Shown here: in pieces, positions 3,340 through 56,381 of the stretch | How positions within the stretch are numbered: the stretch's first letter is position 1 | Layout of the letters: each line of letters begins with the position of its first letter | DNA from: an uncultured euryarchaeote | GTDB taxonomy: Archaea; Thermoplasmatota; Poseidoniia; Poseidoniales; Poseidoniaceae | Direction of reading: 5' to 3' | Length of the DNA: 64,000 nt | Assembly (NCBI GenBank): GCA_937892945.1 | Contig: CALBIL010000038.1 | Location: 66,102-130,101, forward strand | The notes under the pieces: model-generated | What the model was told of the DNA's origin: nothing | What the model saw: the letters and a program-made list of their open reading frames with translations, nothing else | The model's database searches: none | Made by a program: the position numbers and the translations under genes

Positions 3340-8107
<4,768 letters not shown>

Positions 8108-11100: not shown

Positions 11101-11719
11101 CAACAGTAACACGGTTAGGTGCAAGGTCTTCCATAGAGATCAAGACACGTTCTGTTCCGTTGATGATGAAGTAGCCTCCAGGGTCAAGAGGGTCTTCGCC
11201 ACGCTTTCGCAGCAAGTCGTCCCACAATGCGGAATCTTCAGTTGAGGTAGTTGGATACAATTGACGTTCTCCAGCAATGTGCTTTGCGTGAAGGTTACAG
11301 CGAGTCGAACGGACCATAATTGGCATGCTACCAACTTGAACGCCAGTTTCGACTGGAGAAGGTACGCCATTACGAGAAATTTGGAAATCGATGGTAACTG
11401 GTGACATGTAGGTCAACTTTCGTAGTCGGCATTCCATAGGAGTCGATGGGTGCTCTGCACCGTTCGCTTCACGAATGGTTGGTTCGCCGAGTTTAATGTT
11501 CTTCAAACGAATGGTGATGTCGTGATCGACGACGTCGAGTTTGATGTAACCGCCTTCATCATCATGGATTTCTTCATCGGTTCCAACACGGATGTTGCGA
11601 ATGATTTCCTCCATACGAGAGATGGTGTTGTCTCCTGACGGGATACAGTCGTCATAGGAAGCGAGTTGGTGGTTGACGAGGCTACGTTCTTTGAAAAATG
11701 ATTGAATAATTTCTTGCAT
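8108..11719 (-). CDS. rpoB: DNA-directed RNA polymerase subunit B, fused B''+B' form (1203 aa)
   Basis: Single continuous ORF covers both halves. Conserved motifs include RPDVLTSKIMHALATGNW, GLVKNAA and the C-terminal GEMERDCLIAHGA. GGAGG lies 8 nt upstream of the ATG at 11719. Confidence 0.95.
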
Positions 11720-11726
11720 ATTAATA

Positions 11727-11731
11727 CCTCC
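11727..11731 (-). promoter_or_regulatory. Shine-Dalgarno (GGAGG) for rpoB in the 12-nt rpoH-rpoB spacer
   Basis: Plus-strand cctcc at 11727-11731, 8 nt upstream of the rpoB ATG at 11719-11717. Confidence 0.5.
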
Positions 11732-12382
11732 TTAGTTACCCTCTACAATAAGTCGATAGGCAACGGTCTTTCCCGCAGATGGTGACTGACGGATTACTTT
11801 CACGACACGGTCGGCAATCCAACCGGCTGCGAGTGGTTTGTGTTCCGGGTCAGCTGCGAGACGTGCGTTATCTGCATTCTCAGCCATTTCCTTAATGACC
11901 TGAACTACAGGGTCTGTGATGAGAATTTTAGGCAACCATTCCTTTGCAATTCGTGGTTCACCGGTTTCATCGTCAGGTTGAATCATTTCCCAAGGAGCGA
12001 GTTCTTCGCTTTCGATAGCGAATTGGTCTTCTACGGAGATGTTTGCTTCACCGACTAATTCATGGTGTGGAACCAAATGGTGGTTCAATGCATTGAAACG
12101 CATGGTGATTTCAGGGCGATCGAAATCATCGATAGCCTTTGCACGAATTGTGATTTTCTTACTCTTCGACTTTGAACGTCGACGAGAACCTTGCTCGGCA
12201 ATAACCGACATGGTGCTAATGAATTGTTCTGAATCTTTGGAAACGCCGAGCGTTGAGGCGACTTCATCGGAAGACATGGCCTTAATGTCAGTCATGTTTC
12301 GGTCTGTTGCTAATTTATGTGCGAACTCTTCTGAAACACCGAGTTCCATGAGTCGTTTCTTTGTTGCGCTTTTTACTACCAT
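11732..12382 (-). CDS. rpoH: RNA polymerase subunit H (Rpo5), 216 aa, with ~90-aa N-terminal extension (HhH/HeH-like module plus basic linker)
   Basis: C-terminal ~120 aa match RpoH (NHHLVPHHEL..., DPVVQVIKE..., RQSPSAGKTVAYRLIV). The N-terminus [27 protein letters not shown] is a paralog of the RpoA'' N-terminus. ATG confirmed at 12382-12380. Confidence 0.8.
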   Translation of the reverse strand: MVVKSATKKRLMELGVSEEFAHKLATDRNMTDIKAMSSDEVASTLGVSKDSEQFISTMSVIAEQGSRRRSKSKSKKITIRAKAIDDFDRPEITMRFNALNHHLVPHHELVGEANISVEDQFAIESEELAPWEMIQPDDETGEPRIAKEWLPKILITDPVVQVIKEMAENADNARLAADPEHKPLAAGWIADRVVKVIRQSPSAGKTVAYRLIVEGN

Positions 12383-12431
12383 GCTCAGACCCCGATCGAC
12401 CCTACCACTTTGAGCCTGCAGACCAGTCAGG

Positions 12432-12505
12432 CGGGCCTGACGGGGTTCGAACCCGCGACCATCGGATTAAAAGTCCGACGCTCTACCTGACTGAGCTACA
12501 GGCCC
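12432..12505 (-). tRNA. tRNA-Lys (anticodon TTT)
   Basis: Minus-strand GGGCCTGTAGCTCAGTCAGGTAGAGCGTCGGACTTTTAATCCGATGGTCGCGGGTTCGAACCCCGTCAGGCCCG. 7-bp acceptor stem, T-arm GCGGG-TTCGAAC-CCCGT, anticodon loop CTTTTAA. CCA is not encoded. Confidence 0.8.
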
Positions 12506-12708: not shown

Positions 12709-14181
12709 ATGCCTGACGATGAATACTTCGGGTCGGATGACACCGAGCAAGAAATTGAACGATTGGGTCGTGTCGCAAAACAACTGATTTGGACCACTCC
12801 CCAAAACCGTAAAATCCACCTGACTGTACCCCCGACAGTATACCCCCCACGAGAGGATACAGATCTTCTTTCACAAGTCGTCCACCAATACCCGGATCCG
12901 AATGGAAAGCGATTCCTGGAAATTGGTTGTGGCTCTGGCGCTGTTTCTCTTTTTGCCGCCCAACTTGGATTCTGCGTCACAGCGTGTGACATCAACCCCT
13001 TTGCCGTTGCGAGCAGTAGGAATTCCGCTCAAGAGAACGGCATAGAAATCGATGTACGGGAAGGTGGACCCGGCCCACAATCCGATGGTGGAACTGAACA
13101 ATGGGCAGGAGAGACGCCTCACGACATCATCGTGTGGAACCTTCCTTATTTGATGCCTGAAAGGAACACGCAGCATCTCGGACCCTTCGAAGAAGCGGCA
13201 TTGCTCGACACCGATGACAAAGGACTCGTCAACCGCCTCTTACATCACCTCAAAACTTCGAATATTCTCGCAACTGATGGAGTCGTGTACCTCCTTGTAT
13301 CGCAGAACGAGAGAGGAAAGGCTGCACGAACACTCTGCCTCCGAAATGGATTTGCAGTTCGAACAATCACCACACATACATTTGATGATGACGAATGTTT
13401 GGAAGTTCTCGGAGTGTGGAGGCCTTTTCAATTTCATTCAAAATCATTGGAAAAGGAAATCAATTCAACCAACACCTCGCTGTTAAACTCGGATGATAAA
13501 GAGGGCAGTTTTTTACAAGCAGGCCGTCAAACAGCAGGCCATGGACGCCGAGGACGCGCATGGTCACATGAAGACATTGCCTTTGCAGGTTCATGGGTCA
13601 TCCATGAACGCTCAACATCTCCAAACCCAGGCCTACTTCAACTTCAAGGCGGCTTAGCTTTGTATGAAACAATCGCGGCACTCACACAGACCACTAACAC
13701 TCAAATTATGAAATGGCCAAATGATGTTCTTCTTGTGATTGATGGAGAGTTACGGAAAGTGGGCGGCATCTTAGTTGAAGGAATAAGTCAAGGTAAATAC
13801 ACACGGATCATTCTCGGCATTGGATGCAACATCTCCGCACAAAAAGTGGAAAAAAAGGGATACTCAATCGCAACACTTCAAGAACTCAATACCGAAATAA
13901 CACTCACTGCTTTCGAATCGGTAATCCAAGCAGCGGTTGCTTCATGGTTTGAGCAGAAAGAGGGGATGAATGAATTGAAACAAAAGTCGATAATTGCCAA
14001 GTATACATCTCTTTTTTCCAAAGGATTACAAGCCCTCGGAGCACCAATCTATAGAGCACAAAGTATGACCTTTGTTGAGACGGAAAGTAAAGGCAGAATC
14101 ATACTCCAAGATCGCATGGGAAACATACATCTCGTCCAAGATGGTGAAGATATTACATGGACAAACTACGCCACAAATTAG
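12709..14181 (+). CDS. Fusion protein: N-terminal Mtq2/HemK-like SAM-dependent N5-glutamine methyltransferase, C-terminal biotin--protein ligase (BirA catalytic domain)
   Basis: Methyltransferase half: VYPPREDTDLL, motif I LEIGCGSGAVS, motif IV NLPY (an NPPY variant). BirA half: GRQTAGHGRRGRAWS, KWPNDVLL, KVGGILVEG. One uninterrupted 490-aa ORF. Confidence 0.75.
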   Translation: MPDDEYFGSDDTEQEIERLGRVAKQLIWTTPQNRKIHLTVPPTVYPPREDTDLLSQVVHQYPDPNGKRFLEIGCGSGAVSLFAAQLGFCVTACDINPFAVASSRNSAQENGIEIDVREGGPGPQSDGGTEQWAGETPHDIIVWNLPYLMPERNTQHLGPFEEAALLDTDDKGLVNRLLHHLKTSNILATDGVVYLLVSQNERGKAARTLCLRNGFAVRTITTHTFDDDECLEVLGVWRPFQFHSKSLEKEINSTNTSLLNSDDKEGSFLQAGRQTAGHGRRGRAWSHEDIAFAGSWVIHERSTSPNPGLLQLQGGLALYETIAALTQTTNTQIMKWPNDVLLVIDGELRKVGGILVEGISQGKYTRIILGIGCNISAQKVEKKGYSIATLQELNTEITLTAFESVIQAAVASWFEQKEGMNELKQKSIIAKYTSLFSKGLQALGAPIYRAQSMTFVETESKGRIILQDRMGNIHLVQDGEDITWTNYATN

Positions 14182-44338: not shown

Positions 44339-47300
44339 TCAACGTGCAGGAATCGCTTTGAGTGTTGAGATCTCTTGACCCATTCGTTCCAAAGCAAGTT
44401 GGGCTGCTTCTTGATGTTGCGGACCCATTTCCTCACGACCGTAACGTGCTTGCTCAAACATATTGTCAAGAGCAAGTAACGCTTCATCAGAAATCTGCGG
44501 CATTGCTTGACGAATTGCCATCTCGAATTCACGAACTGTTTCGAAATCACGACGCAAGAATCCGTGTTCTTGGAAAGCAGCACAGAGATTCTGATAACAC
44601 GTGAAGATTGCTTCACGGATTGAGTCGCCCGCAGCCAACAACTCAGCCGTATACGCAAATATCTCAGCAGCTTCTTCCATTAATTCTGAAGACTTACGGC
44701 GGCGGTAGAGGAGGGTACCTGCACCTGCCAGTCCGAAGATGAGAAGGGTGAGAATATACGCCCATGCAGGAATTTTCGTTGCTGCTTCCTGGTATTCATA
44801 TGAAGGGGCAAATGCATCACCGGACAGTAAAGCAAACTCAGATAATGTTTGTTCTGAGAGCCGAGGGTCGTTGATAAGAATCTCCATGTATAATTCGCCC
44901 CAAGCATCTGTGTCACCATATGGAGGGTCAGAATTGAAATCAAACTCTGCAACACCATCGGCATTCGTAAGTGGTTGCTGAACATCGCCAAGTTGAGTTC
45001 CATTCTCCGTGTAGAGATAAATGGCGACTGCAATTCCATCAACACCCTGTCGAGTATCTTGTGCCGTAATGAGAATACTTCCTCCAATGTCCTCTTGTTC
45101 ATCCTCGATGATACCATCCAGAGATACAACAATGTCTGCATTAATTTTGACAAAGATCAAGTGACTCACACTTGCCGAGTTGAGATAATGGATATCTTGA
45201 CGAGAAGTTTCCAGATGCAAGTATTGAGTTCCAGCACCAAGGAAGGCAGGTGCAGTCGTAGTTAGGGAGAAGTTTCCATTCGACCAATCAATAACGAGAT
45301 TTTCTAAGCAACGCGCCCCATCCTTCTGGGCCAAACATTGTGAACCATTACCAAGATACAGTGTGACATTGTCAAACACTTCACCAAGTCCTCCAATTTC
45401 AGAGACTGAACCGGTCAGTATGATCGGTGCAAAGGTTGAATCGGAACGAACCACAATGTTTGCAGAGGTTGCATCGATGGTGATTCTGGCATTTGCCCAC
45501 ACGGTCGCAGCACCAGTTGCTTGAGTCCCAAGATGGGCCTCAGTGCCTTCATAGAAGATTGTGAAGAGGTGGTCGCCACGAGCTAAATCGGAAGTTGCAG
45601 GTACGAGTATTGACCAACTACCATCGGAACCTGTAACGAGGGTTGCAATCTCAACGTCATCTAAGCGAAGACTGAGATCCATCCCACTCAAGCCGTCGTT
45701 ATTGACAGAATCAATGTCAAACAAACGACCTGACAGAGCCCAGAAATTACCGCGAGTTACATCTTTACCCTCATCGAAGATGAAAGTAACATCTGAGCGA
45801 TGGGCCAAGAAGAAGGAAGTATTGCCTGTGTCTGAACGATAGTAGCCTTGTGCATCCACATTTGCAAACAAGAGGTGGTCGCCAAATCCAAAGGTATCTG
45901 GAACGGTCCAAGTGAAAGTAAACATCCCTTCTGCATCTGTAACAACGGTCGCAATGATGAGGCCTTCGACTTCAAGAAGCACCGTATGGCCGGAGATTCC
46001 AGAGAGTTGATTATCGACGACAGTACCGGTGATGGTTGTATTCTGACCGACTGCGACTGGGCTTTCCATCGAAACTGTGACCAATATTGGACTGTATACA
46101 GTCCATGTCCCAATTGCATTACTTGGCAGATAGAAGGTTGTGCCTGTGAAACGAATCTCCAGCGAAATTGGACCGAGTTGGGCATCAGCAGGTACTGGGT
46201 AAACTGCGGTAAAGAGACCTGTTTCATCAGTCGTCACATTCGTCATCCATTGACCGTCAAGCCAAACTTCAACTGTGAGGTTGTCCAAAGGTACGTCAAC
46301 CAAATCCAGCAAACGCCCTTCAAGAGTCATTGTTGCTTCGCGGTCAACTGTCCCGGTAGGCGTCAAAAGAATAATTTTAGTAGGTACACTGACATTGAAG
46401 TTGACTTGTGCACTGCTAGGGAGGTAGAAATCAGGGTTTGCAGGGTCACCGACGCCAACGGGGTCGACCCAATCGCGTCCACCAAGGAAACGTACTTCAA
46501 TCAAATGTGCTCCAGCAGAGGTGTCCTCTGGCAATGTCCAACCGATTGAAAAGTTCCCACTCAATGCATTCGTTTCAATACTCGAAACTGGGATTCCATC
46601 GACAAGAAGATGAACAATTGCAAGTGATGAGATCCCGTTGATTGTGAGTGTTTGATTTAGGCTATCGAACAATGTCCCTTCGACTGTGAACGAGTCTCCT
46701 GCTACAAGTGTTGAAGGGGATGAGGAAATCATAAGATTCGTCTGAGCAAGAACAACGAATTGTGTTGAGGTATTTGAGCCGATCAAACCAGTTGTCCCCG
46801 GAGTCCCAGCAAAAGTCACGTGCAGGTCATTGAAACCAATGGATTGGTTATTTGGAACGGTAAGTACACCTACGCCTGTCCCATTTTCAAAGGTCGTGAG
46901 GATGATGCTTACATCTGTACCAATAAGCGTAACAACGACCTGTTGTGCTGCAACTGCAGACTGAGTATTGTCACGTAAGAGCACCTGAATTTGTACATCA
47001 TCACCACGTTCAGTACGGTCATTCAAAGATGGTAAACCAATACCATCAAGTGAAGGTTGAACGAAGATAAGGGAGGTAAACCCTCGACTATCGAAAGAGG
47101 TGTTCATCGTCGAACCAATGTAGTAATTGACGTTTGGAATAAATGAGGCATCGAGAGAATTGTTTCCTGCTTCGAAGCCTTCACCAAGAAGGATGGTCGC
47201 GGACCATATTCCACCTGTGGTGACTGAACCACCCGTCACCGAAAAGCCAGTGGTTTGGCCGTTGAGACTGAACAAAATATTCGAAGGCAAGACACTGCCA

Positions 47301-50300
47301 TCGCGTTGTTCAAGCCCACTTCCATTGTCACTGGTTACCGTACCGGTGACATTGAATGAAGTACCAGCAACAGGGTTCGCTGCAATTGGATCAACCACCA
47401 TAATGGTCGTCGAGCGAATGGTAATGGTTGAAAGGTTCACTTGTGTATTCAATAAGTCTGAAGAACCGTTGAACACCAATGAGACAATAATTAATCCAAG
47501 TGGATGTGACATTGGTATTTGGTGACTGAAGTTCGCATAGCCTTCACCATCTGTTTGAGTACCTACTAACCATGTTTCATGAAATTGAATATCGACATCG
47601 AATCCGGATAATGGTGCAAAGAGATTCGATGATTCCATTAAACGTCCAGTGATGTTAATTGAATCTCCACGATTTACGGTGACTGGAATTAACGGTTGGA
47701 GATTATTAAATTGACTTACACCCATCACTAACATTCCATTTTGTGAAGTGGAAGTGAGGTAGAAAGGTGAAGAGTCTTCATTCACACTCAAAACGAGAAT
47801 CTTGTTACCACGTTCAGTACCATTGCCGGAAGTATCGGTTGGAATACTCATATTGAAAGTTCCATTTGAAGTTGTCAGATAGGTACCTACCAACAGTTCA
47901 TCAGGATTATTCAACCAGAATGCAGACATTTCAACTGGAGTTGTAAGAGGACGTGCAGTATTATCTCCGTCGAGAACTTGACCGATGACATTGAAATTTA
48001 ATCCAGCTGTTGTCACAGTAGGAATCGAATCGATTCGGATTTCACTCGGAACTTGAACGGTGAGGTTGATGATGGAGGAGTTGCCCGTGCGACGTGAATT
48101 ACCTTGCCCAAGAGCGTCGGTTAAATCATCATAAACAATCACCAACACATCATAATAGCCAGGTGAAACGCCTGTTGCCGTCCATTGGAGAGTCGAATTA
48201 CCTTCAGCATCTGAAGTATCAAGACCCAATGAAACATTGGTGTTCCCCCAATCAAAGATGTATTCGACTGAAGCACCAGATATGTTTGATTTGTCGGCGA
48301 CATCACGAATTGTCGTATTGAAATCAATTGCTTGGTTGACTTCAACGATTAAGGAACTGCGTTCAGGTTCAACTACAAACTCTGACTCAATGCCAACAAG
48401 TGTTGATGGGAAAGTAGGCGCAGCAGGTGGAACAGAAGTATCGACAAGTCGGAAATATGCGCCACCGGCCGGAGCCATCGAGTCAAAGTCCATATTCAGA
48501 AGGAATTCATATGAATCTGAAGGATTTGTCGTTGGAACCGTGAAGTTGAGAAGGAAACTTCCTGTCGTATTGTTTAACAATCCTTGTGAAAGGTCGATCG
48601 GCATACCATCCGGTGTCATCATGATCACAGAAAGCATGGTAATATTGTCGCCAAGTACACTCAGGTTTGTGTATTGAGCGTCAAAGATATCTCCAATCAA
48701 ATAACTCGAATTACCCAAGTGGGTCCAATCTTGCCCGAGGGTCAAATTCCATCCGACTTCAGCAGCAACGCGCACCATGCCCATGCCGCTCGAGGGTTGA
48801 TACAAATCTGAACCGTTGAATACGATGTCAAACGAGTAATCACCAGCAAACAAAGTCGAATCAATTAACCAATTAATGGTCAATGTTTCAGATTGTGGGT
48901 CGACGGTGGTATTAATCCAGTTTCCGTTAAAAGAGAAATCAAAATTTCCAGAGAGAAGGAGGTCTGAATTAACACCACGATGGTCGACTGCGGTGACTAA
49001 GACTGTTGCTTCAGACCCTCTTAACTGGGCGGAGGCTTGAACTTCGAAATCAAGTGTCCCTCGCAGGAGATAAGGGCCACCTGCAGTGATGTTTGCATCA
49101 TCTGTTGCTTCAATTGCATCCGGGAAGAAACGGAGTTGAATTTCGAGTACTCCTGCCATGACTTGGGTATCTGCTGCCAAGAGTAAATGTTGGATACTAA
49201 ATGACCCATTGACACTTTGGTTAAACACTTGAACCCAGTCTTGTGAAGATCCGTTTTCTCGAATTGAGAATGAAAGATTACCTGGCATTGCGACAGGAGA
49301 TGCTCCAGTCGTCAGGGTAGAACCGTTCACCCAGAGATCATCTCCGATAAGGATGACACTCTTATTAGCAAGAGGTCCTTCAAGAGTGGCAGTTAAATTC
49401 GGTGCATCGCGCACATCAATTACAATCGAAGCGGTCGAAGGACGTAAATGGAATTGAGTCGGAGTTATGCCGGTAGCTTGCGTATCTTGCCATCCAGAGA
49501 AGCCAAGAGTTGCAGAAAGATTCGTTTTCGTCTCGAGTGGGTCGAGGTCTAAATCAAAACTCCAAGTACCATCGATATTCATAAAACTGCTCAAATTTGT
49601 GAAACCTGTCACCGATGAAGTGTACGTTAACCAAACCGATGGTGGTGTCAAATCATTGACGCCAAGATTTGCAATATTGTTTTGTGGAGCATTCTCCAAA
49701 GAGAGTCGCCCTTCAATTACTGTCATGGCACCAGCACCAGCAATTGGAGCATTGATTGCATTGGGAGCAGTGTGATTAAGAATTGAATCATCGGTGACGT
49801 TGATGTATCCATCAAAAATCACGCCTGCTTCGGCTACATACCCGGATTGAACGAGTTTGACAACGACGCGATACATTCCTGGGCCGTCTAATTCAGGAGG
49901 AATTCCAATGAAACTAAAGGTTCCATTCGAAAGCGTAGTGGTTGAACCAATCTCGAAGTTTGGAATAGCAGCTTGTCCGGGGACATCATTTTGCAATCCC
50001 ATTGGAACAAGGTAGCCTAAAAGTATGTGATCCGCAATAGAAGATGTGTTTTCAGTGAAGCGGAGTTGTCCAGTGACATTGAGCAAGGTCGTCCCATCAC
50101 GGTCGAGGGTTAAGGAAGAAAGAGTTTGATTCACAATTTCAACTTCTTCAGCCGCAGGACAGGCGTCGAATGCAATCCATCCAAGTTCAGTATCTCCATT
50201 CGCTGAATTTTGTTGCAATCGGACTTCACCCCAAGTGGACAAATGGGTTGGGTACAGTGAATAGCCATCACCGTTCCAAATACCGCCAGAGAAACCGGTC

Positions 50301-53300
50301 ACCATACGAGCAGGTAATCCAGCAAGGCGAGCCATCGTAACGAATGCTGTATTAAATTCTGAACAAGTTCCTTCAAATGCAGCTTGGACTAAAGTTACGC
50401 TCAAATCTTCGGAAGAAGGGATTCCAGAGCCGTTGTAATTACGCTTGAAATCAGTGGTTGCATTTCCTTCAGTCAGGAAAGTCTGCAAGGCTGTTGCACT
50501 GTCATAAGCATTGGTTGCACCTGCCTCAGTAATGACTGCAGTTGTAACATTGAGGAGGTACGAATTCGGGTGCGAGGGGTCGTTAAAGGTAGGCGGTAAA
50601 ATCAATTCATAACTTGAGTTCGTGCCCGGTACTGTCGTTGATGCAAGTGTTGCCCAATCGAAGTAATACTCTGGTTGTTGGACATAAATTTCTTGAATTG
50701 GCCCATTAAGAACTCGGATGTTATGAGTATCATTCGATCGTAGTAACTCTCCAGCAATGTCCACGTAAAACGATACATTAGAGAGTGAATAGGGGACGGG
50801 GAGATTACCCGATATTGATGGATTTTGATAAGTAATCATCCAATCAAGAGTTTCGTTCGAAAAGGTAAGGTCACCAAGATGAGTTAGATTCGAGTAAGGG
50901 AGAATCATGGGTTCAAATGGATGAATCGCTTCAAGATGCGCATAGGTTGTACCTGTGTAGAAATCATTGGTCGTTTGGCGCCATCGATGAATTGAATCGA
51001 TATCGACGACACCTGAGGTATTGTTTGCCCAAAAGACAACTTCTGAAGAAATCAAATCGTCGGTTGGGTCAAAAGGATCGAAAGGTGAACCTTGACATCC
51101 GACAATCCAAAACTCTTGAGGGCATTCGAGGCCATCAATCATCCCACCGCCGTCGGTATCCGGGTTGGTCCAATCAGTTCCTGTTTGATTCTCAACAGCA
51201 TCAGGAATACCGTCACCATCAAAATCAGCAGGCAATAAGTCATCAGTCGGATCGTTTTCAGGGTTCGTACCATCAAAATATTCATCGCGATCCCCAACAC
51301 CACCAGCATCTGTATCGCTCGTCACATCGCTTGTAACCCATACATCTGTCGAACCGTTGAGGATTCCAATCCACGAAAGATCGCAGCCTGTTGTCGCTTC
51401 AAAATAATTGTTCAATCCATCAAGATCATCATCGAGTAAATTCGTGCAGGGTTGGTTGGGGTCCGTGTTGTCAAAGACTTCATCAAAATCATTCACACCA
51501 TCTGCGTCAGTATCCGCGAGCGTAGGATTCGAAAACCAACCAAACGTTCCGAGTAATTCTTGCCAATCTGCAAGGCCATCTCCATCTGAATCTGAATAAT
51601 CATCATCACAATATTGCTGAGTTGTGCCAATTGTCCCACTGGCTGTTGCCGATGTGTGGCAGAAAGACCCGTTGCGATTTGAGACTTGCGTGACACCTGA
51701 ATTTGGAGCGGTTGATACGCCTTGTATGGCATTATTCACCGTACCTGCATAAGCAAAAGCAATCCAGGTGCCAGAAGTGTTGTACCACCCCACACCACCG
51801 CTTGGATTGAATCCTGTCCCATCGAGAACTTGGAGTTGGCTGGTACCTGCAGCCCAAGATACAATGGTCGTTTCAAAGTTGATTATCGAGTCGCAAGGGT
51901 CCGTTCCATGCGAAACATTGCGTTCATCACCATCATTGATTCCACCGAAATCGGTATCGGCAATATCCCAAGTGGTGCATGAAAGGTTTTCTTCCCAATT
52001 CTGAATCCCATCATTGTCTTCATCACCGGAATCTTCCATTCTCGTAGGGTCGGTTTCACCTGCATCCAAAACACCATTAAAATTGGTATCTTCTTCACCA
52101 TCGTCAAAGGCGTCCCCGTCGGTGTTATTGTTACGCGGATCGCTTGGTTGAGGAGGTATTCCATAAGCACCGTTAACTTCAACGCCGTCATCAATACCAT
52201 CGCGGTCGGTATCTGCAGAAGTTGGGTCTGTCAAGAGCGTCAATGCTTCATAGGAATCGTTTAATCCGTCACCATCAGTATCTGCGCGCTGTGGATTTGT
52301 ACTCGTAATGCCATCGACTTCGGCAGTCAAAGCAGCACAACCACCTGGCCCAATTCCGGACACAGGGTCACAAGGCGAAGTGGTTTCTGTAACAACTCCA
52401 TCAGGACCGTTCCGGAAACAAGGTGAAGTACCACACATTGTGGTCCATGATGGATTGACATATTCCATGAGATTGGTGAGCCCGTCTCCATCTGGGTCGC
52501 CATTTGGCCCATCAGCATTGGAAGCGGAAGTTGCATTGAGGCCATTCGCGGCCTCCCAACCGTCATTCATTCCATCGCCGTCGGTATCCCAACCGGCCAC
52601 GTCTTCATCAGCAATGCCATCACCGTCATCATCGTTGGATGAGCAATCTGCATCCCCGTCATTATCGGGATCGGCAGAATCAACCAAGCCGTCTTTATCG
52701 TCATCGAAACCATTCGTACAAATATTGCCTACTGGGTCTTCGTCGCAAAGAATCACACTGCCGGTGCCGTCTGAGCCACTATCACCGCAACCAGGTCTGT
52801 TGTACTGCAGGGCTCCTTCTTCATTCCAATCATTGACTGGAACTGTACCGTTCCACCAAACACCCTGATCAAGAACACCTGGTGTTGAAGAGCTGTCCCA
52901 ATTTTGAGGTTGCAAGTAAGAATATTCTTGTAAATTTGACATCCCATCGCCATCAGGGTCGCCAACTGCTCCATCTCCGCCGTTACTCGAAAGAGGGTCA
53001 AGGCCATATTGCCACTCCCATCCATCGGGCAAACCATCGTTATCAGAATCGGGGTCATTTGGAGCTGTATTCATGAGGTATTCCAAACCATACGTCAAAC
53101 CATCTCCATCTTGGTCAGAAGCGGCCAGAACATCCATCGAAATATACGGAATTGCAGCAAAAGTTGAGAGCACCATCAAGGCCGCTAGGGAGAACGATTT
53201 GAAGGCGTTACGATGCTGAAGAATCTGCCATTGGAAGCGCGGCTCGGAGGGAGAAACAGTCGTGCGCATTGGATTCACTGTTGACGGGCTGGTTTGATGC

Positions 53301-53407
53301 CTCATAAGGGAAATGGTACGATGTTCATACAATGCTTCACTTTGAGGGGTGGTCGTGAAGAGTAAATACGAAACAAACAGCCACGCAGTAAAGCGTATAC
53401 ACTTCAA
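44339..53407 (-). CDS. Giant surface protein (3022 aa): N-terminal TSP3-like repeats, extracellular transglutaminase-like Cys/His/Asp core, ~2000 aa of repeated beta-sandwich-like domains, single TM, DUF4129-like cytoplasmic tail
   Basis: Transglutaminase core: EGTCSEFNTAFVTMARLAGLPARMVTGF, HLSTWGEV, GWIAFDA, located around 50100-50420. TM: AWAYILTLLIFGLAGAGTLLY RRRK. Tail: TVREFEMAIRQAMPQISDEALLALDNMFEQARYGREEM. Confidence 0.85.
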   Translation of the reverse strand: MKCIRFTAWLFVSYLLFTTTPQSEALYEHRTISLMRHQTSPSTVNPMRTTVSPSEPRFQWQILQHRNAFKSFSLAALMVLSTFAAIPYISMDVLAASDQDGDGLTYGLEYLMNTAPNDPDSDNDGLPDGWEWQYGLDPLSSNGGDGAVGDPDGDGMSNLQEYSYLQPQNWDSSSTPGVLDQGVWWNGTVPVNDWNEEGALQYNRPGCGDSGSDGTGSVILCDEDPVGNICTNGFDDDKDGLVDSADPDNDGDADCSSNDDDGDGIADEDVAGWDTDGDGMNDGWEAANGLNATSASNADGPNGDPDGDGLTNLMEYVNPSWTTMCGTSPCFRNGPDGVVTETTSPCDPVSGIGPGGCAALTAEVDGITSTNPQRADTDGDGLNDSYEALTLLTDPTSADTDRDGIDDGVEVNGAYGIPPQPSDPRNNNTDGDAFDDGEEDTNFNGVLDAGETDPTRMEDSGDEDNDGIQNWEENLSCTTWDIADTDFGGINDGDERNVSHGTDPCDSIINFETTIVSWAAGTSQLQVLDGTGFNPSGGVGWYNTSGTWIAFAYAGTVNNAIQGVSTAPNSGVTQVSNRNGSFCHTSATASGTIGTTQQYCDDDYSDSDGDGLADWQELLGTFGWFSNPTLADTDADGVNDFDEVFDNTDPNQPCTNLLDDDLDGLNNYFEATTGCDLSWIGILNGSTDVWVTSDVTSDTDAGGVGDRDEYFDGTNPENDPTDDLLPADFDGDGIPDAVENQTGTDWTNPDTDGGGMIDGLECPQEFWIVGCQGSPFDPFDPTDDLISSEVVFWANNTSGVVDIDSIHRWRQTTNDFYTGTTYAHLEAIHPFEPMILPYSNLTHLGDLTFSNETLDWMITYQNPSISGNLPVPYSLSNVSFYVDIAGELLRSNDTHNIRVLNGPIQEIYVQQPEYYFDWATLASTTVPGTNSSYELILPPTFNDPSHPNSYLLNVTTAVITEAGATNAYDSATALQTFLTEGNATTDFKRNYNGSGIPSSEDLSVTLVQAAFEGTCSEFNTAFVTMARLAGLPARMVTGFSGGIWNGDGYSLYPTHLSTWGEVRLQQNSANGDTELGWIAFDACPAAEEVEIVNQTLSSLTLDRDGTTLLNVTGQLRFTENTSSIADHILLGYLVPMGLQNDVPGQAAIPNFEIGSTTTLSNGTFSFIGIPPELDGPGMYRVVVKLVQSGYVAEAGVIFDGYINVTDDSILNHTAPNAINAPIAGAGAMTVIEGRLSLENAPQNNIANLGVNDLTPPSVWLTYTSSVTGFTNLSSFMNIDGTWSFDLDLDPLETKTNLSATLGFSGWQDTQATGITPTQFHLRPSTASIVIDVRDAPNLTATLEGPLANKSVILIGDDLWVNGSTLTTGASPVAMPGNLSFSIRENGSSQDWVQVFNQSVNGSFSIQHLLLAADTQVMAGVLEIQLRFFPDAIEATDDANITAGGPYLLRGTLDFEVQASAQLRGSEATVLVTAVDHRGVNSDLLLSGNFDFSFNGNWINTTVDPQSETLTINWLIDSTLFAGDYSFDIVFNGSDLYQPSSGMGMVRVAAEVGWNLTLGQDWTHLGNSSYLIGDIFDAQYTNLSVLGDNITMLSVIMMTPDGMPIDLSQGLLNNTTGSFLLNFTVPTTNPSDSYEFLLNMDFDSMAPAGGAYFRLVDTSVPPAAPTFPSTLVGIESEFVVEPERSSLIVEVNQAIDFNTTIRDVADKSNISGASVEYIFDWGNTNVSLGLDTSDAEGNSTLQWTATGVSPGYYDVLVIVYDDLTDALGQGNSRRTGNSSIINLTVQVPSEIRIDSIPTVTTAGLNFNVIGQVLDGDNTARPLTTPVEMSAFWLNNPDELLVGTYLTTSNGTFNMSIPTDTSGNGTERGNKILVLSVNEDSSPFYLTSTSQNGMLVMGVSQFNNLQPLIPVTVNRGDSINITGRLMESSNLFAPLSGFDVDIQFHETWLVGTQTDGEGYANFSHQIPMSHPLGLIIVSLVFNGSSDLLNTQVNLSTITIRSTTIMVVDPIAANPVAGTSFNVTGTVTSDNGSGLEQRDGSVLPSNILFSLNGQTTGFSVTGGSVTTGGIWSATILLGEGFEAGNNSLDASFIPNVNYYIGSTMNTSFDSRGFTSLIFVQPSLDGIGLPSLNDRTERGDDVQIQVLLRDNTQSAVAAQQVVVTLIGTDVSIILTTFENGTGVGVLTVPNNQSIGFNDLHVTFAGTPGTTGLIGSNTSTQFVVLAQTNLMISSSPSTLVAGDSFTVEGTLFDSLNQTLTINGISSLAIVHLLVDGIPVSSIETNALSGNFSIGWTLPEDTSAGAHLIEVRFLGGRDWVDPVGVGDPANPDFYLPSSAQVNFNVSVPTKIILLTPTGTVDREATMTLEGRLLDLVDVPLDNLTVEVWLDGQWMTNVTTDETGLFTAVYPVPADAQLGPISLEIRFTGTTFYLPSNAIGTWTVYSPILVTVSMESPVAVGQNTTITGTVVDNQLSGISGHTVLLEVEGLIIATVVTDAEGMFTFTWTVPDTFGFGDHLLFANVDAQGYYRSDTGNTSFFLAHRSDVTFIFDEGKDVTRGNFWALSGRLFDIDSVNNDGLSGMDLSLRLDDVEIATLVTGSDGSWSILVPATSDLARGDHLFTIFYEGTEAHLGTQATGAATVWANARITIDATSANIVVRSDSTFAPIILTGSVSEIGGLGEVFDNVTLYLGNGSQCLAQKDGARCLENLVIDWSNGNFSLTTTAPAFLGAGTQYLHLETSRQDIHYLNSASVSHLIFVKINADIVVSLDGIIEDEQEDIGGSILITAQDTRQGVDGIAVAIYLYTENGTQLGDVQQPLTNADGVAEFDFNSDPPYGDTDAWGELYMEILINDPRLSEQTLSEFALLSGDAFAPSYEYQEAATKIPAWAYILTLLIFGLAGAGTLLYRRRKSSELMEEAAEIFAYTAELLAAGDSIREAIFTCYQNLCAAFQEHGFLRRDFETVREFEMAIRQAMPQISDEALLALDNMFEQARYGREEMGPQHQEAAQLALERMGQEISTLKAIPAR

Positions 53408-53423
53408 AGAAACAGGAAATTAC

Positions 53424-56381
53424 TCAAAGATCTTCAAGTTGATCTAAAAGTTCCAAATCATCATCTTCTTCGACCACTGGTTCGACGATAGATTCTACAG
53501 TTTCGAGTCCAAAATCAAACTCTTCATCGACCCACTTTTGATGAGGTTCATTCATCCCACCAGCATTTTGCCCACGCCGATACACAGCAAAGACTAGAAC
53601 AAATGCGAGACCAATTCCAAGCGCTAATGTTTGAGGTTCTGGATTCATAATTTCATTGAAAAGACATGCAATCCCATTGCATTCAGTTTGATATGAAAAC
53701 GACATAATTTGAGTGAATTCACTGTCATAGGGCACTTCCTCATCCATCGGAGTAACTGTCAGAGTAAATTTCACGTCATCACCGTCTTTCAAATTTGACG
53801 GTGGGGTAACTGCAACTGAGAAGTCTTTACTCGTGTATGCAGGAAGTGTGAGCAAGAGGAAACTTCCTCCATTTTGGCCAGAAGATGCTCGAATCAAGCC
53901 ATCCCATCCATTCGGCTCCTCCAAGGTAATCACCACATCGAGAGGTATGTTGTTTTGGTTATCAATCTTGAAGTTAATACTCCTTTCTTCATCTGACTCA
54001 AACCGGATAATTTCAGTGCTTGTGTCGGTGATTTCAAGTTGTCCTGGTTGGACGTCATCTCGGACTTCAACTGTAATTGGTAAATCGAAGTATCGCGCTT
54101 CTTCAGAATCTACGCCTTCCTCGATGACTCGAACATAGACAGTATGGAACCCAGCCTCAACCTTAGAGCGCAATGTCAAGTCGAGCTTGATGTCTACGTG
54201 CTCATCGGCTTCAAGATAGACGACCACAATATTGGATTCCGTTCCATTCGAGATATCATAATCCCATGTACCATAATCGGGGTTACCGTCTGGAGTTTCG
54301 AGATTACGGTCTAATTCTGAAGGATTTTTAATTCTCCATGTCGTTTGACCCAGTGTTTCACTTGAATCTGTGATTCGCATATTGTAATACATGCTTGAAC
54401 CTGGTGAAACAGGCCCGACTGTACCGAGCGTGCCTCCATCAGAGTCAGCAATGACTTCCACCAGGATGCCAAAAGTCCGGTGAACTGTGAACGCAATTTC
54501 TGTGCTGAGTTCGGTGTCACTGGTACTGGAAACTGAAAACTCGACCAAACCAATGTCTTGTGCATCTCGCTCATTCGGTGGGAAAATTTCCATGCGTAGA
54601 GTGATAATTTGATTTGAACCTATATCGGGAGTGATTGAATAAATTCCTTCTTCAGTCAACTCCATTCCCGTATCGTTATCGAAGAACTTGAATTGCCAGG
54701 CGTCAGGAAAATCTGTAACTCGTAATCGGAATGAATCTGTAATAAATCCTGCATTGAAGACATCGACGAAGAATTCACCTTTGGTATCGCCGGCGTCGAC
54801 ATAATGCGAAAGTGTCTCATCATAGGCTTCAACACGCGTTGAATCAGCAATTTGTATTTGATGTTCAAAATCTTCAAAGATGGCAATCCGAGGTGGCGCC
54901 AATACATCAGATTCTTCAATCGAAAGGACAATCGTTTTTATTGCTACTTGATCGTTTTGGGCATTTTCAGTATCTGCATAGGCTCGTGCTTCAATTTCGA
55001 TGCTGCTTGGAGCATTGGTGAGGTCTCCATCGACCACATCAAACCTGAGAATTGGACGAGCAAAGGTGCCTCCACCGTTGAGCGTGTATCCACCGGCTTG
55101 ATCCCATATAGGGTCTGACCATGATGAAGGGAAAGGTGAACCAACTAAATCAAAGACGATATTCATCGATGAAGAAGTAGAGCCGGTATGTTCGATCAAG
55201 AATTCAATACTGGATGTTTGGCCTGGAGCAATTAGAACAGTATCTGGCTGAGAAGAAGGGAGTGAGAGATAGATGTCATGCTCCACGAAAGTAATCCCGG
55301 GGTGTTCAAAGACAAGTGTATGACCTTGAACGTCATTGATTTCCAATTGCAAGGGGTAATCGCCAGCACTGATACCAGAATCATACGTCCACGTATAATT
55401 CCCAATCAATCCTTGATTATCCAACTTCAGCTCATCATCGTCGAATGTTTTATCGAACTCTGAGTTTGCACCATTTGGCGTACTCATGACCAAATCCACG
55501 TTTTGAATGTCATCACGCCCAAAAGCATCACGAACATCAACAGTGAATTGCATTGTTCGGAAATCAGGCCGATGGTTTGGAGACCATTCAAGAACTTCTG
55601 CATCAGTAAAACTTGCACCAGGTCGGTGAACACGAACAGATGAGTCAGCTAATGCATTTGCTTTCAATTCGAGTTTCGAGTATCCATTGGTTTGTTCGAC
55701 ATCACCAAAGGCAACATCGACTTCACAATTGTTGCCACCAATACCGCCACCACCACTGCTTTCACAAGTGGCCTGAGCATCGATATTCAATTCCAGTTGT
55801 TCTCCATTTTCGACAGTAAAGCCGTTTGATGAGATTTCAAAATCGATAATGCTTGGCGTCCAAGAACAACTACCAGTTCCAAGAGCCCCACCGGTACATG
55901 GTTCCTCAAGAGTTTCTGAAAACGAATCAATTTCGGTCCCACCGGATTCGAGTGAATAGGTGATGTCTGCGGTAGAGCCCGTTGACCCACGGAATTGTAA
56001 AAACAGCGTCAACGTTACTTTGTCGGTATTGTCACGGCCGTAGACTAAGAGGTCGGAAATCATTTCATTACTACGGAATTGAATCCCACCCAGTGCACTC
56101 AGTTCCTGGTGAGAACCTGAAGGTTCCTCTGTGGTGATTGAACCATCTCCGCCAGCCTCTGAGGTCATTTCATCGAGGTACAGATCGTACGATTGGCACG
56201 TATTGCAATCGTTTCCTGCGGGCAAAACACTCGGTTCATCTTCAAGAACAGAATCGAATGACGTCGGGTATGAAGAAGGGGCAGTCATAGGAAGAATTGA
56301 GCCGATGAGCAAGATGACCAAAAGGACGGGTAAAAGGCGGTTGACGGAAGTTGCATGCGTTGAGGACACTCTGTTCACCAT
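53424..56381 (-). CDS. Large surface protein (985 aa): signal peptide, beta-rich domains, C-terminal TM and acidic tail. Upstream partner of the 3022-aa gene.
   Basis: Leader LLPVLLVILLIGSILPMTAPSS. C-terminal LALGIGLAFVLVFAVY RRGQ and a D/E-rich tail. 16 nt from the downstream gene start. Confidence 0.8.
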   Translation of the reverse strand: MVNRVSSTHATSVNRLLPVLLVILLIGSILPMTAPSSYPTSFDSVLEDEPSVLPAGNDCNTCQSYDLYLDEMTSEAGGDGSITTEEPSGSHQELSALGGIQFRSNEMISDLLVYGRDNTDKVTLTLFLQFRGSTGSTADITYSLESGGTEIDSFSETLEEPCTGGALGTGSCSWTPSIIDFEISSNGFTVENGEQLELNIDAQATCESSGGGGIGGNNCEVDVAFGDVEQTNGYSKLELKANALADSSVRVHRPGASFTDAEVLEWSPNHRPDFRTMQFTVDVRDAFGRDDIQNVDLVMSTPNGANSEFDKTFDDDELKLDNQGLIGNYTWTYDSGISAGDYPLQLEINDVQGHTLVFEHPGITFVEHDIYLSLPSSQPDTVLIAPGQTSSIEFLIEHTGSTSSSMNIVFDLVGSPFPSSWSDPIWDQAGGYTLNGGGTFARPILRFDVVDGDLTNAPSSIEIEARAYADTENAQNDQVAIKTIVLSIEESDVLAPPRIAIFEDFEHQIQIADSTRVEAYDETLSHYVDAGDTKGEFFVDVFNAGFITDSFRLRVTDFPDAWQFKFFDNDTGMELTEEGIYSITPDIGSNQIITLRMEIFPPNERDAQDIGLVEFSVSSTSDTELSTEIAFTVHRTFGILVEVIADSDGGTLGTVGPVSPGSSMYYNMRITDSSETLGQTTWRIKNPSELDRNLETPDGNPDYGTWDYDISNGTESNIVVVYLEADEHVDIKLDLTLRSKVEAGFHTVYVRVIEEGVDSEEARYFDLPITVEVRDDVQPGQLEITDTSTEIIRFESDEERSINFKIDNQNNIPLDVVITLEEPNGWDGLIRASSGQNGGSFLLLTLPAYTSKDFSVAVTPPSNLKDGDDVKFTLTVTPMDEEVPYDSEFTQIMSFSYQTECNGIACLFNEIMNPEPQTLALGIGLAFVLVFAVYRRGQNAGGMNEPHQKWVDEEFDFGLETVESIVEPVVEEDDDLELLDQLEDL

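Follow-up and report, generated by a model that had tools for sequence, protein, structure and literature searches.

What are the 98 residues that precede the conserved domain of an archaeal RNA polymerase subunit H, and what role may they have beside the DNA? The question is raised by a 64,000-nucleotide stretch of DNA from an uncultured euryarchaeote (GenBank assembly GCA_937892945.1, contig CALBIL010000038.1, positions 66,102 to 130,101 of the forward strand), which is called the window here and is numbered from its first letter. The RNA polymerase operon in this 64-kb window belongs to a Poseidoniales (Marine Group II) archaeon and has the order rpoH-rpoB-rpoA'-rpoA''. An initial annotation, made from the letters alone, reported at 11732-12382 on the reverse strand an open reading frame (ORF) for an RpoH (Rpo5) of 216 aa, and both this ORF and the sequence quoted for it agree with the data analyzed here. 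Archaeal H has been stated to have no N-terminal extension (PMC3906176; PMC2847245; PMC3479171). RpoH of the window is predicted to consist of three parts, namely a folded module of about 65 residues, a disordered segment of about 35 residues whose first half is basic, and an RpoH assembly domain that bears insertions. What the initial annotation did not notice is that RpoA'' of this operon and many unrelated proteins start with the same module.

Identity of the H subunit

By its domain, its fold and the position of its gene, the protein belongs to the RpoH/Rpo5 family. The best stretch for the Pfam family RNA_pol_Rpb5_C (PF01191) covers residues 144-212 (E = 7.4e-10, 38.9 bits against a cutoff of 23.5 bits). 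The subunit-H equivalog model of NCBIfam, NF007129, finds two matching stretches but, at 48.2 bits, stays below its cutoff of 83, since the core has diverged and contains insertions. Alignments to solved archaeal H chains (77-84 aa) place NHHLVPHHE at residues 100-108 (NHHLVPHHEL at 100-109), LPKILITDPV at 150-159, RQSPSAGKTVAYRL at 198-211 and AYRLIV at 208-213; the general anchor motifs in the Protein Data Bank (PDB) alignments are NHxLVPxHE, LPKIxxxDPV and RxSPxAGxxxAYRL. Based on these anchors, the canonical domain spans residues ~99-216 and 98 residues lie ahead of it. Pfam and PDB alignments thus agree with the initial annotation, which had confined the homology with RpoH to the last ~120 aa. 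From the spacing between the three anchor motifs it follows that the core contains two insertions of about 21-23 aa each relative to the 77-84-aa solved archaeal subunits.

An AlphaFold2 (AF2) model of full-length RpoH, computed from a 65-row alignment, has a mean predicted local distance difference test score (pLDDT) of 81, with values of 84-93 over residues 111-216 and 74 over residues 101-110. In the core, the model shows an additional helix at residues 117-127, a beta-hairpin at 134-145 and a long helix at 158-177. When this full-length model was compared by Foldseek with the Rpo5/H chains of five archaea, the probability was 1.00 and the template modelling score normalized to the target (TMt) 0.64-0.75. 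Of the two core insertions, which are lineage-specific, the first (about residues 113-149) comprises a helix and a beta-hairpin and the second (about residues 164-190) an extended helix and a loop; both are partly shorter in Marine Group IIb (MGIIb).

Conservation and translation of the extension

The database search returned 813 homologues, and those that are named are annotated as RpoH of Candidatus Poseidoniales, Poseidoniaceae or Poseidonia. A scan of relatives with one genome per GTDB species yielded 400 loci encoding a relative, of which the best 80, all from Poseidoniaceae, were examined. The position of the rpoH ATG and the 216-aa product are identical in the window and in 80/80 of these genomes, so that the ATG is present in 81/81 sequences. 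The ratio of nonsynonymous to synonymous divergence (dN/dS) was determined according to Nei-Gojobori for 416 genome pairs with unsaturated synonymous divergence. It was 0.026 for residues 1-66 (the module), 0.014 for the basic linker and 0.018 for residues 79-98 ahead of the core, as compared to 0.083 for the RpoH core itself. Hence, the extension is under stronger purifying selection than the very domain that defines the family. No nonsynonymous change was found in codons 1-11 in any of the genome pairs. As a separate observation, the proportion of synonymous differences (pS) of these 11 codons (12350-12382, reverse strand) is 0.195, compared to 0.44 for the whole module, which suggests an extra constraint on the 5' end of the mRNA, related either to initiation or to RNA structure.

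The extension is also present beyond the closest relatives. A distant RpoH of 196 aa that shares 58% identity keeps both the synteny and the extension, and a family of 195-aa RpoH proteins that includes that of Candidatus Thalassarchaeum betae (MGIIb, Thalassarchaeaceae) aligns with 99-100% coverage of the full-length query. In a third lineage (191 aa), the module is in frame behind a TTG start, although the gene had been called from an internal Met. The check proposed in the initial annotation, for close relatives in which the extension is absent or interrupted, found it kept in all 80 genomes, in Thalassarchaeaceae and in the third lineage. Conservation on this scale cannot be due to chance and indicates a genuine extension that is translated from the ATG at 12382.

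Relatives of 72-173 aa, from a library clustered at 50%, were considered as proof of an absent extension, but were rejected as fragments, frameshifts, adapter chimeras or proteins with miscalled starts. The only apparent case without a module, locus L206, is a contig of 528 bp in which the GC content jumps from 24% to 49%, and was dismissed as a compositional chimera. The entries P0117, P0179, P0192 and others possess LLYTSPSPRDR-like tails, which we take to be read-through into Illumina Nextera adapter sequence. Such entries, like L206, are assembly artefacts able to mimic truncated or module-less relatives.

Predicted structure of the module

In the full-length AF2 model, residues 6-65 form five helices with a pLDDT of about 90, and residues 68-100 score below 50. 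Modelling of the module alone from 55 diverse instances gave a pLDDT of 85.6 and a predicted template modelling score of 0.68, with helices at residues 5-13, 18-24, 30-34, 38-45 and 52-65. The initial annotation had suggested checking whether the module is predicted to be disordered, and AF2 instead predicts a folded domain (pLDDT about 86-90). This would be a compact five-helix domain, composed of two helix-hairpin-helix (HhH)-like units and a connector helix. A small bridge is predicted between residue 3 and residue 26, and this bridge accounts for the conservation of the extreme N-terminus. The first residues, MVVKSATKK, represent an invariant basic arm that belongs to the domain; over 11 residues this arm has a net charge of +4. 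N-terminal peptides include VVKSATK, LMELGVSEEFAHK and AMSSDEVASTLGVSK.

The module is followed by the Ser/Lys/Arg-rich basic linker that the initial annotation had pointed out. This linker, SRRRSKSKSKKITIRAK, has a net charge of +9, computed over residues 66-82 including the uncharged Ser66, and a pLDDT below 50. It leads into a segment that is conserved and predicted to be disordered as well.

The module has no match to any Pfam family. Its Foldseek comparison with FANCM/FAAP24 resulted in a query-normalized template modelling score (TMq) of 0.69, a root-mean-square deviation of 1.9-2.6 A over 61-64 columns and a probability of 0.94-0.96. Other top matches were the C-terminal repeats of NusA, the C-terminus of UvrC, RAD51 paralogues and the N-terminal domain of RadA, followed by SAM domains. 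The second hairpin follows the pattern h-x-x-h-x-G-[VI]-S-x-x-x-x-x-h.

Some homologues carry the Joint Genome Institute (JGI) label 'RpoH / Cu/Ag efflux protein CusF'. A CusF-like domain at residues 56-101 was considered and rejected: the NCBIfam match has an E of 3.9e-5 but reaches 23.7 bits against a cutoff of 143, Pfam gives E = 0.05, and the region is predicted to be disordered. The label, which stems from this weak chance match, is almost certainly spurious.

A second module on RpoA''

RpoA'' has an extension of its own, since the solved A'' chains (391-397 aa) align only from its residue ~121-134 onward. The first 60 residues match the RpoH module with an E of 7e-11 by phmmer and of 3e-30 with a hidden Markov model (HMM) of the module. 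The layout of A'' mirrors that of H, namely a module, a partly basic linker and the canonical subunit. The module of RpoA'' begins with an ATG in 58/58 loci that reach rpoA''. Its dN/dS is 0.059, close to the 0.049 of the adjoining core, whereas the linker has values of 0.12-0.15 and is under relaxed, yet still purifying selection.

Identities among modules bear on the age of the duplication. Modules of the A'' type share 70-74% across three lineages and those of the H type 40-58%, whereas H and A'' modules share 38-50% with each other. These identities place the duplication before the split of the two Poseidoniales families. Each polymerase carries two tethered paralogous copies, one on H and one on A''. 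The 64-kb window contains exactly two modules, and no further copy beyond those of RpoH and RpoA'' was found in the 18-kb neighbourhoods of the 80 genomes.

Other proteins that carry the module

A phmmer search of the whole RpoH against 1.84 billion cluster representatives resulted in 144 matches. Around 100 of these are limited to residues 1-~80 of RpoH, and nearly always the match lies at the very start of the other protein; RpoA'' forms the largest group among them. Altogether, the module opens at least a dozen unrelated protein families. Among them are an AAA_15/AAA_21 ATPase of 851 aa that also has C2H2 fingers, a protein of 193 aa with a single TFIIB cyclin repeat, proteins that are Cys-rich or contain a zinc ribbon, and one of 1292 aa without recognisable domain. 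The 193-aa family was considered as a conserved TFB paralogue, but it comprises only two clusters and was given little weight. One protein, P0241, carries two tandem copies, and another, P0166, shares the module, the linker and a KAIEDDDIPTG segment with MGIIb-type RpoH, which looks as if another gene had captured the 5' part of rpoH.

At least 120 metagenome loci contain a match to a degenerate DNA pattern that encodes MVVKSATKK[KR]L. The 130 matches listed comprised 73 RpoA'', 32 RpoH (including two 206-aa products), 15 complete other proteins and 10 sequences cut by a contig end. These 15 other proteins have 146-337 aa, and none of the 10 that were checked against Pfam gave a match (0/10). 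At least two recurrent C-terminal families occur among the other carriers, one with FRGLGSLF motifs and one with a WYxEYYExWV motif, and the carriers fall into H-like and A''-like flavours.

The carrier loci (L203, L204, L205, L132 and L172) are gene-dense, mostly co-directional and nearly devoid of recognisable families; ribonucleotide reductase, a thymidylate-synthase-like protein, a 5'-3' exonuclease and the AAA_15 ATPase are those that could be recognised. These features are compatible with viruses, plasmids or variable islands. With respect to a viral origin, the start pattern had no match in IMG/VR, the module had no tblastn match in GenBank phages, the neighbouring gene of one carrier had no match in IMG/VR, and PHROGs gave almost nothing for the neighbours. 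In the viral structure library BFVD, searched for viral counterparts and not as a control, no similar fold was found (best probability <=0.47). As judged from this distribution, the module is a lineage-specific mobile module and not an RpoH-specific extension.

Possible function and alternative explanations

The description of two tethered modules, in its structural and evolutionary aspects, is held with high confidence. What they may do is suggested by the position of H. This subunit is strongly associated with A'' in the lower jaw, is required for open-complex formation and, within the pre-initiation complex, cross-links to positions +10 to +20 of the downstream DNA (PMC2847245), which is consistent with the jaw/downstream-DNA side to which the initial annotation had assigned the module. 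A positively charged groove adjoins the N-terminus of H; it is filled by the Rpb5 jaw domain in eukaryotes and by Rpo13 in Sulfolobales. Because, in solved archaeal polymerases, H binds A'' and sits at the lower jaw, and because this groove is filled elsewhere by the Rpb5 jaw or Rpo13, we infer that the module may be a lineage-specific, non-homologous occupant of the Rpb5-jaw/Rpo13 region. Through its acidic (HhH)2/SAM-like core, the module would either attach to the polymerase or form a pair with the A'' copy, and the basic arm and the Lys/Arg/Ser linker would touch the downstream duplex DNA through weak, sequence-independent contacts. These contacts could stabilise DNA loading and early transcription, as the lysine tail of Rpo13 does. 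Taken as a whole, this explanation is probably the right one, by a modest measure; its specific mechanism, docking or pairing via the core and downstream DNA contact via arm and linker, is a tentative proposal that falls somewhat short of being probable.

A number of observations weigh against this explanation. The helical core of the module is acidic (net charge -6, isoelectric point 4.3). The Gly-hydrophobic-Gly hairpin is found in neither hairpin of the module, which read LGVS and LGVS in RpoH, and in some paralogues, where they read MLVP and CETD, they are free of glycine. Since the core is acidic and lacks such hairpins, DNA binding by the core itself is doubtful. The best Foldseek matches in the PDB are (HhH)2 domains with a TMq of 0.58-0.69 over 60-70 columns, but all have an E above 0.1, and accordingly none passes E <= 0.001. 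Only 1/55 module members touched a Pfam HhH family, namely HHH_5 at E = 0.077, and neither the module nor its profile matched any PDB sequence. Comparison by hhalign with the N-terminal domains of RadA and RAD51, whose sequences were entered by hand, gave probabilities of 27% and 4%, and a sequence-level link to these domains was dropped in view of these weak values. A generic tag would explain the occurrence of the module on many unrelated proteins no less well than a DNA guide specific to the polymerase. In addition, papers were the source for where the N-termini of H and A'' lie with respect to the DNA, and the organisms are uncultured. For the HhH-like motif proposed in the initial annotation, the outcome is mixed: 'HhH-like' is supported as a predicted five-helix fold with (HhH)2 domains as top matches, and it is not supported as membership of an HhH family.

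The most serious alternative is that the module is chiefly a tag for protein-protein docking or pairing, such that the H and A'' copies pair mutually or with the module on other proteins. Tagged accessory or mobile-element proteins would in this way be brought to the polymerase or compete there. Apart from the acidic core without canonical DNA-binding hairpins, this is suggested by the closest folds, which include the obligate heterodimerising FANCM/FAAP24, the protein-binding NusA C-terminal repeats and SAM domains, and by the location of the module at the extreme N-terminus of at least 12 unrelated families, TFIIB-repeat protein, AAA_15 ATPase and small Pfam-less proteins among them. The existence of H-like and A''-like flavours and of a protein with two tandem copies points in the same direction. 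However, contact with nucleic acid is suggested by the basic arm and linker accompanying the module, the TFIIB-repeat carrier is a tiny family, and the other carriers might be DNA-associated proteins with a common DNA tether. We consider a role chiefly in docking unlikely, although it and the DNA-tether mechanism are not mutually exclusive. Clearly less likely still is a bolder version, in which the module is a homotypic or heterotypic plug by which the tagged ATPase, the TFIIB-repeat protein and other fast-evolving proteins dock on RNA polymerase or displace its modules; if true, a mimicry-based route to capture transcription would be open to Marine Group II viruses or mobile elements. The extension has also been considered as a general nucleic-acid or nucleoid tether unrelated to the downstream-DNA jaw, with nascent RNA or chromatin proteins as possible partners, by which the polymerase and other tagged proteins might stay on the nucleoid. 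The module is always accompanied by a basic arm and a basic linker, on diverse proteins, several of which look DNA-related (zinc ribbons, C2H2 fingers, SMC/SbcC-like ATPase, TFIIB repeat). Yet this tether differs from the preferred jaw-region explanation in geometry only, and two copies on neighbouring subunits favour a local role, which leaves it improbable.

Two further alternatives concern the nature of the extension itself. It might be an annotation artefact, with translation starting at Met12 or Met94 and the upstream part being an untranslated leader. The initial annotation had held that the ATG at 12382 has no rival with a better context; the ATG itself stood, but the statement on alternative starts has to be qualified, since many database entries of 205 aa are called from Met12 and are otherwise the same as the 216-aa entries. 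Moreover, only GGGGT and no strong GGAGG is found ahead of this ATG. On the other hand, the 11 residues ahead of Met12 are the most conserved part of RpoH (proportion of nonsynonymous differences 0.000 in the 416 pairs), and dN/dS is <=0.026 over codons 1-98. These residues recur in paralogous modules that open other genes and are part of the predicted fold, and inspection of the window sequence revealed no Shine-Dalgarno-like sequence ahead of Met12 or Met94. With the ATG conserved in all 81 sequences and the frame kept behind a TTG in the divergent lineage, an internal start was ruled out as far as sequences can tell, and the artefact is extremely improbable. The initial annotation also called the subunit 'Rpb5-sized', and the extension could be a homologue of the Rpb5 N-terminal jaw domain, making the protein a full-length archaeal Rpb5: its 216 aa are close to the 205-210 aa of eukaryotic Rpb5 chains, and the extension has the same position relative to the assembly domain. 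This size turned out to be a length coincidence. Pfam RNA_pol_Rpb5_N has no match even at E <= 10, and only the C-terminal domain aligns with Rpb5, over ~25 residues by phmmer and over ~117 C-terminal columns by Foldseek (TMt about 0.27). The module alone matches (HhH)2 domains and not Rpb5, and it is also present on A'' and on unrelated proteins. Homology with the Rpb5 jaw was therefore rejected, as the least probable of all explanations weighed here.

Operon context and feature coordinates

The features of the operon are compiled in Table 1. The rpoH ORF opens at the first start codon past an in-frame upstream stop, and the CGGGGT element 7-12 nt 5' of its ATG is kept in related loci. The tight coupling to rpoB described in the initial annotation was confirmed, including the GGAGG in the spacer and the ATG at 11719. 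The assignment of rpoB is supported by syntenic genes in loci L081 and L207 that carry Rpb2 domains 1-7 (Pfam). Further downstream, the TGA stop of rpoA' overlaps the ATG of rpoA'' (TGATG).

The 3' end of a tRNA-Lys upstream of rpoH is kept in related loci, in the MGIIb locus L081 and in locus L207. In this region (12383-12505 with the tRNA, reverse strand), the spacer between the tRNA and rpoH is GC-rich and has no TATA-like stretch. Given this spacer and the tRNA 47 nt upstream on the same strand, rpoH may be co-transcribed with it and then released by processing.

Table 1. Position of the genes, protein segments and signals of the RNA polymerase operon in the window
Feature	Coordinates	Strand	Basis or remarks
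rpoH (rpo5) coding sequence	11732..12382	-	216 aa + stop; ORF listing, Pfam PF01191, 813 homologues
RpoH residues 1-66, predicted five-helix module	12185..12382	-	AF2, dN/dS, Foldseek
RpoH residues 67-82, basic linker, RRRSKSKSKKITIRAK, predicted disordered	12137..12184	-	pLDDT, charge, dN/dS
RpoH residues 83-98, pre-core segment, AIDDFDRPEITMRFNA, conserved, predicted disordered	12089..12136	-	dN/dS 0.018, pLDDT <50
RpoH residues 99-216, RpoH/Rpb5 C-terminal (assembly) domain	11735..12088	-	Pfam, NCBIfam, PDB alignments, Foldseek
Shine-Dalgarno-like GGGGT, 7-11 nt upstream of the rpoH ATG	12389..12393	-	sequence
tRNA-Lys(UUU), 47 nt upstream of rpoH	12430..12505	-	ARAGORN; same strand as rpoH
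rpoH-rpoB spacer, 12 nt, ggaggtattaat, contains GGAGG	11720..11731	-	sequence
rpoB, unsplit, 1203 aa	8108..11719	-	ORF listing; ATG at 11719
rpoA' (Rpo1N), 1068 aa	4905..8111	-	ORF listing, sequence, synteny with Pfam labels
Shine-Dalgarno element GGAGGTGA upstream of rpoA''	4912..4919	-	sequence; kept in related loci
rpoA'' (Rpo1C), 521 aa, N-terminal extension of about 115-120 aa	3340..4905	-	translation
RpoA'' residues 1-60, second module copy	4726..4905	-	phmmer, module HMM
RpoA'' residues 61-120, linker	4546..4725	-	net +6 over 61-96, rest acidic

Other genes of the window were noted in passing. The divergent neighbour of the operon (12709-14181, forward strand) encodes a protein of 490 aa in which a small methyltransferase domain (MTS/PrmA-like) is fused to a biotin/lipoate protein ligase domain, and this fusion gene also adjoins rpoH in MGIIb and third-lineage loci. 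A 3022-aa ORF (44339-53407, reverse strand) possesses a transglutaminase core, CarboxypepD_reg, DUF4129 and a TSP3 repeat. An ORF of 985 aa without Pfam match (53424-56381, reverse strand) comes before it, and both probably encode giant surface proteins.

Comparison with known systems

The subunit itself is already known. No previous description appears to exist of the domain fusion, of its duplication onto A'' or of the module family itself, and the full-text literature searched contains no description of an extended H subunit or of the module in Poseidoniales. NCBI names some homologues 'RpoH/Rpb5 C-terminal domain-containing protein', which reflects a pipeline flagging a non-standard length only. 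A 2026 survey of the variation of small archaeal subunits covers Rpo6 and Rpo8, not Rpo5 (PMC13257274). As compared to canonical Rpo5/H (PF01191, NF007129), residues 99-216 are alike in sequence, in predicted fold and in their position directly upstream of rpoB, whereas the whole protein is 2.6 times longer, due to the 98-residue N-terminal extension and two core insertions of ~22 aa. The module marks a set of otherwise dark Poseidoniales proteins and represents a previously unmodelled, Pfam-less domain family. It is short and soluble-looking, so that DNA-binding and pairing assays are feasible despite the uncultured organisms.

The predicted five-helix topology is that of (HhH)2 domains such as FANCM/FAAP24, XPF/ERCC1-type proteins, UvrC, NusA and RAD51/RadA. 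It differs from these in that there is no significant sequence or profile similarity and no Gly-h-Gly hairpin, the core is acidic and the basic arm lies within the domain. Another comparison is with the C-terminal domain of the alpha subunit of bacterial RNA polymerase, where two small HhH-related helical copies per polymerase are held on flexible linkers and contact DNA and regulators. This parallel is a functional analogy only, as the subunits, the terminus and the domain of life differ, and Foldseek did not list the alpha C-terminal domain in its top 50 matches of the module.

For the question of how eukaryotic Pol II evolved, archaeal RNA polymerase serves as the reference model, and Rpb5 is the eukaryotic counterpart with which RpoH of the window shares an additional N-terminal domain ahead of the assembly domain, a similar total length and possibly a role beside the downstream DNA. 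The N-terminal parts are nevertheless unrelated in sequence and predicted fold, and Rpb5 is a compact two-domain protein, whereas RpoH would have a long disordered basic tether. Rpo13 of Sulfolobales, in turn, occupies the position of the Rpb5 jaw, and its lysine-rich tail is needed for weak binding to double-stranded DNA (PMC3479171). It resembles the extension in being a small helical element with strongly polarised charge and a Lys-rich disordered segment. However, Rpo13 is a separate subunit with a helix-turn-helix, whereas here five helices are predicted that are fused to H, with a second copy fused to A''. Neither RpoH nor the module profile matched the PDB chains of Rpo13, although 2waq and 4ayb were in the library. 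By position, we infer the module to be Rpo13-like or Rpb5-jaw-like, by analogy and not by descent. The authors of the Rpo13 study noted that no archaeon has the Rpb5 N-terminal domain and speculated that analogous factors fill the void in other archaea (PMC3479171). According to the usual view, only two groups fill the space beside the downstream DNA, namely eukaryotes with the Rpb5 jaw and Sulfolobales with Rpo13. The Poseidoniales, which are among the most abundant archaea of the surface ocean, may have arrived at a third solution, namely an unrelated small domain on a basic tether on H with a twin on A'', and would thus provide a concrete and testable example of the predicted analogous factor.

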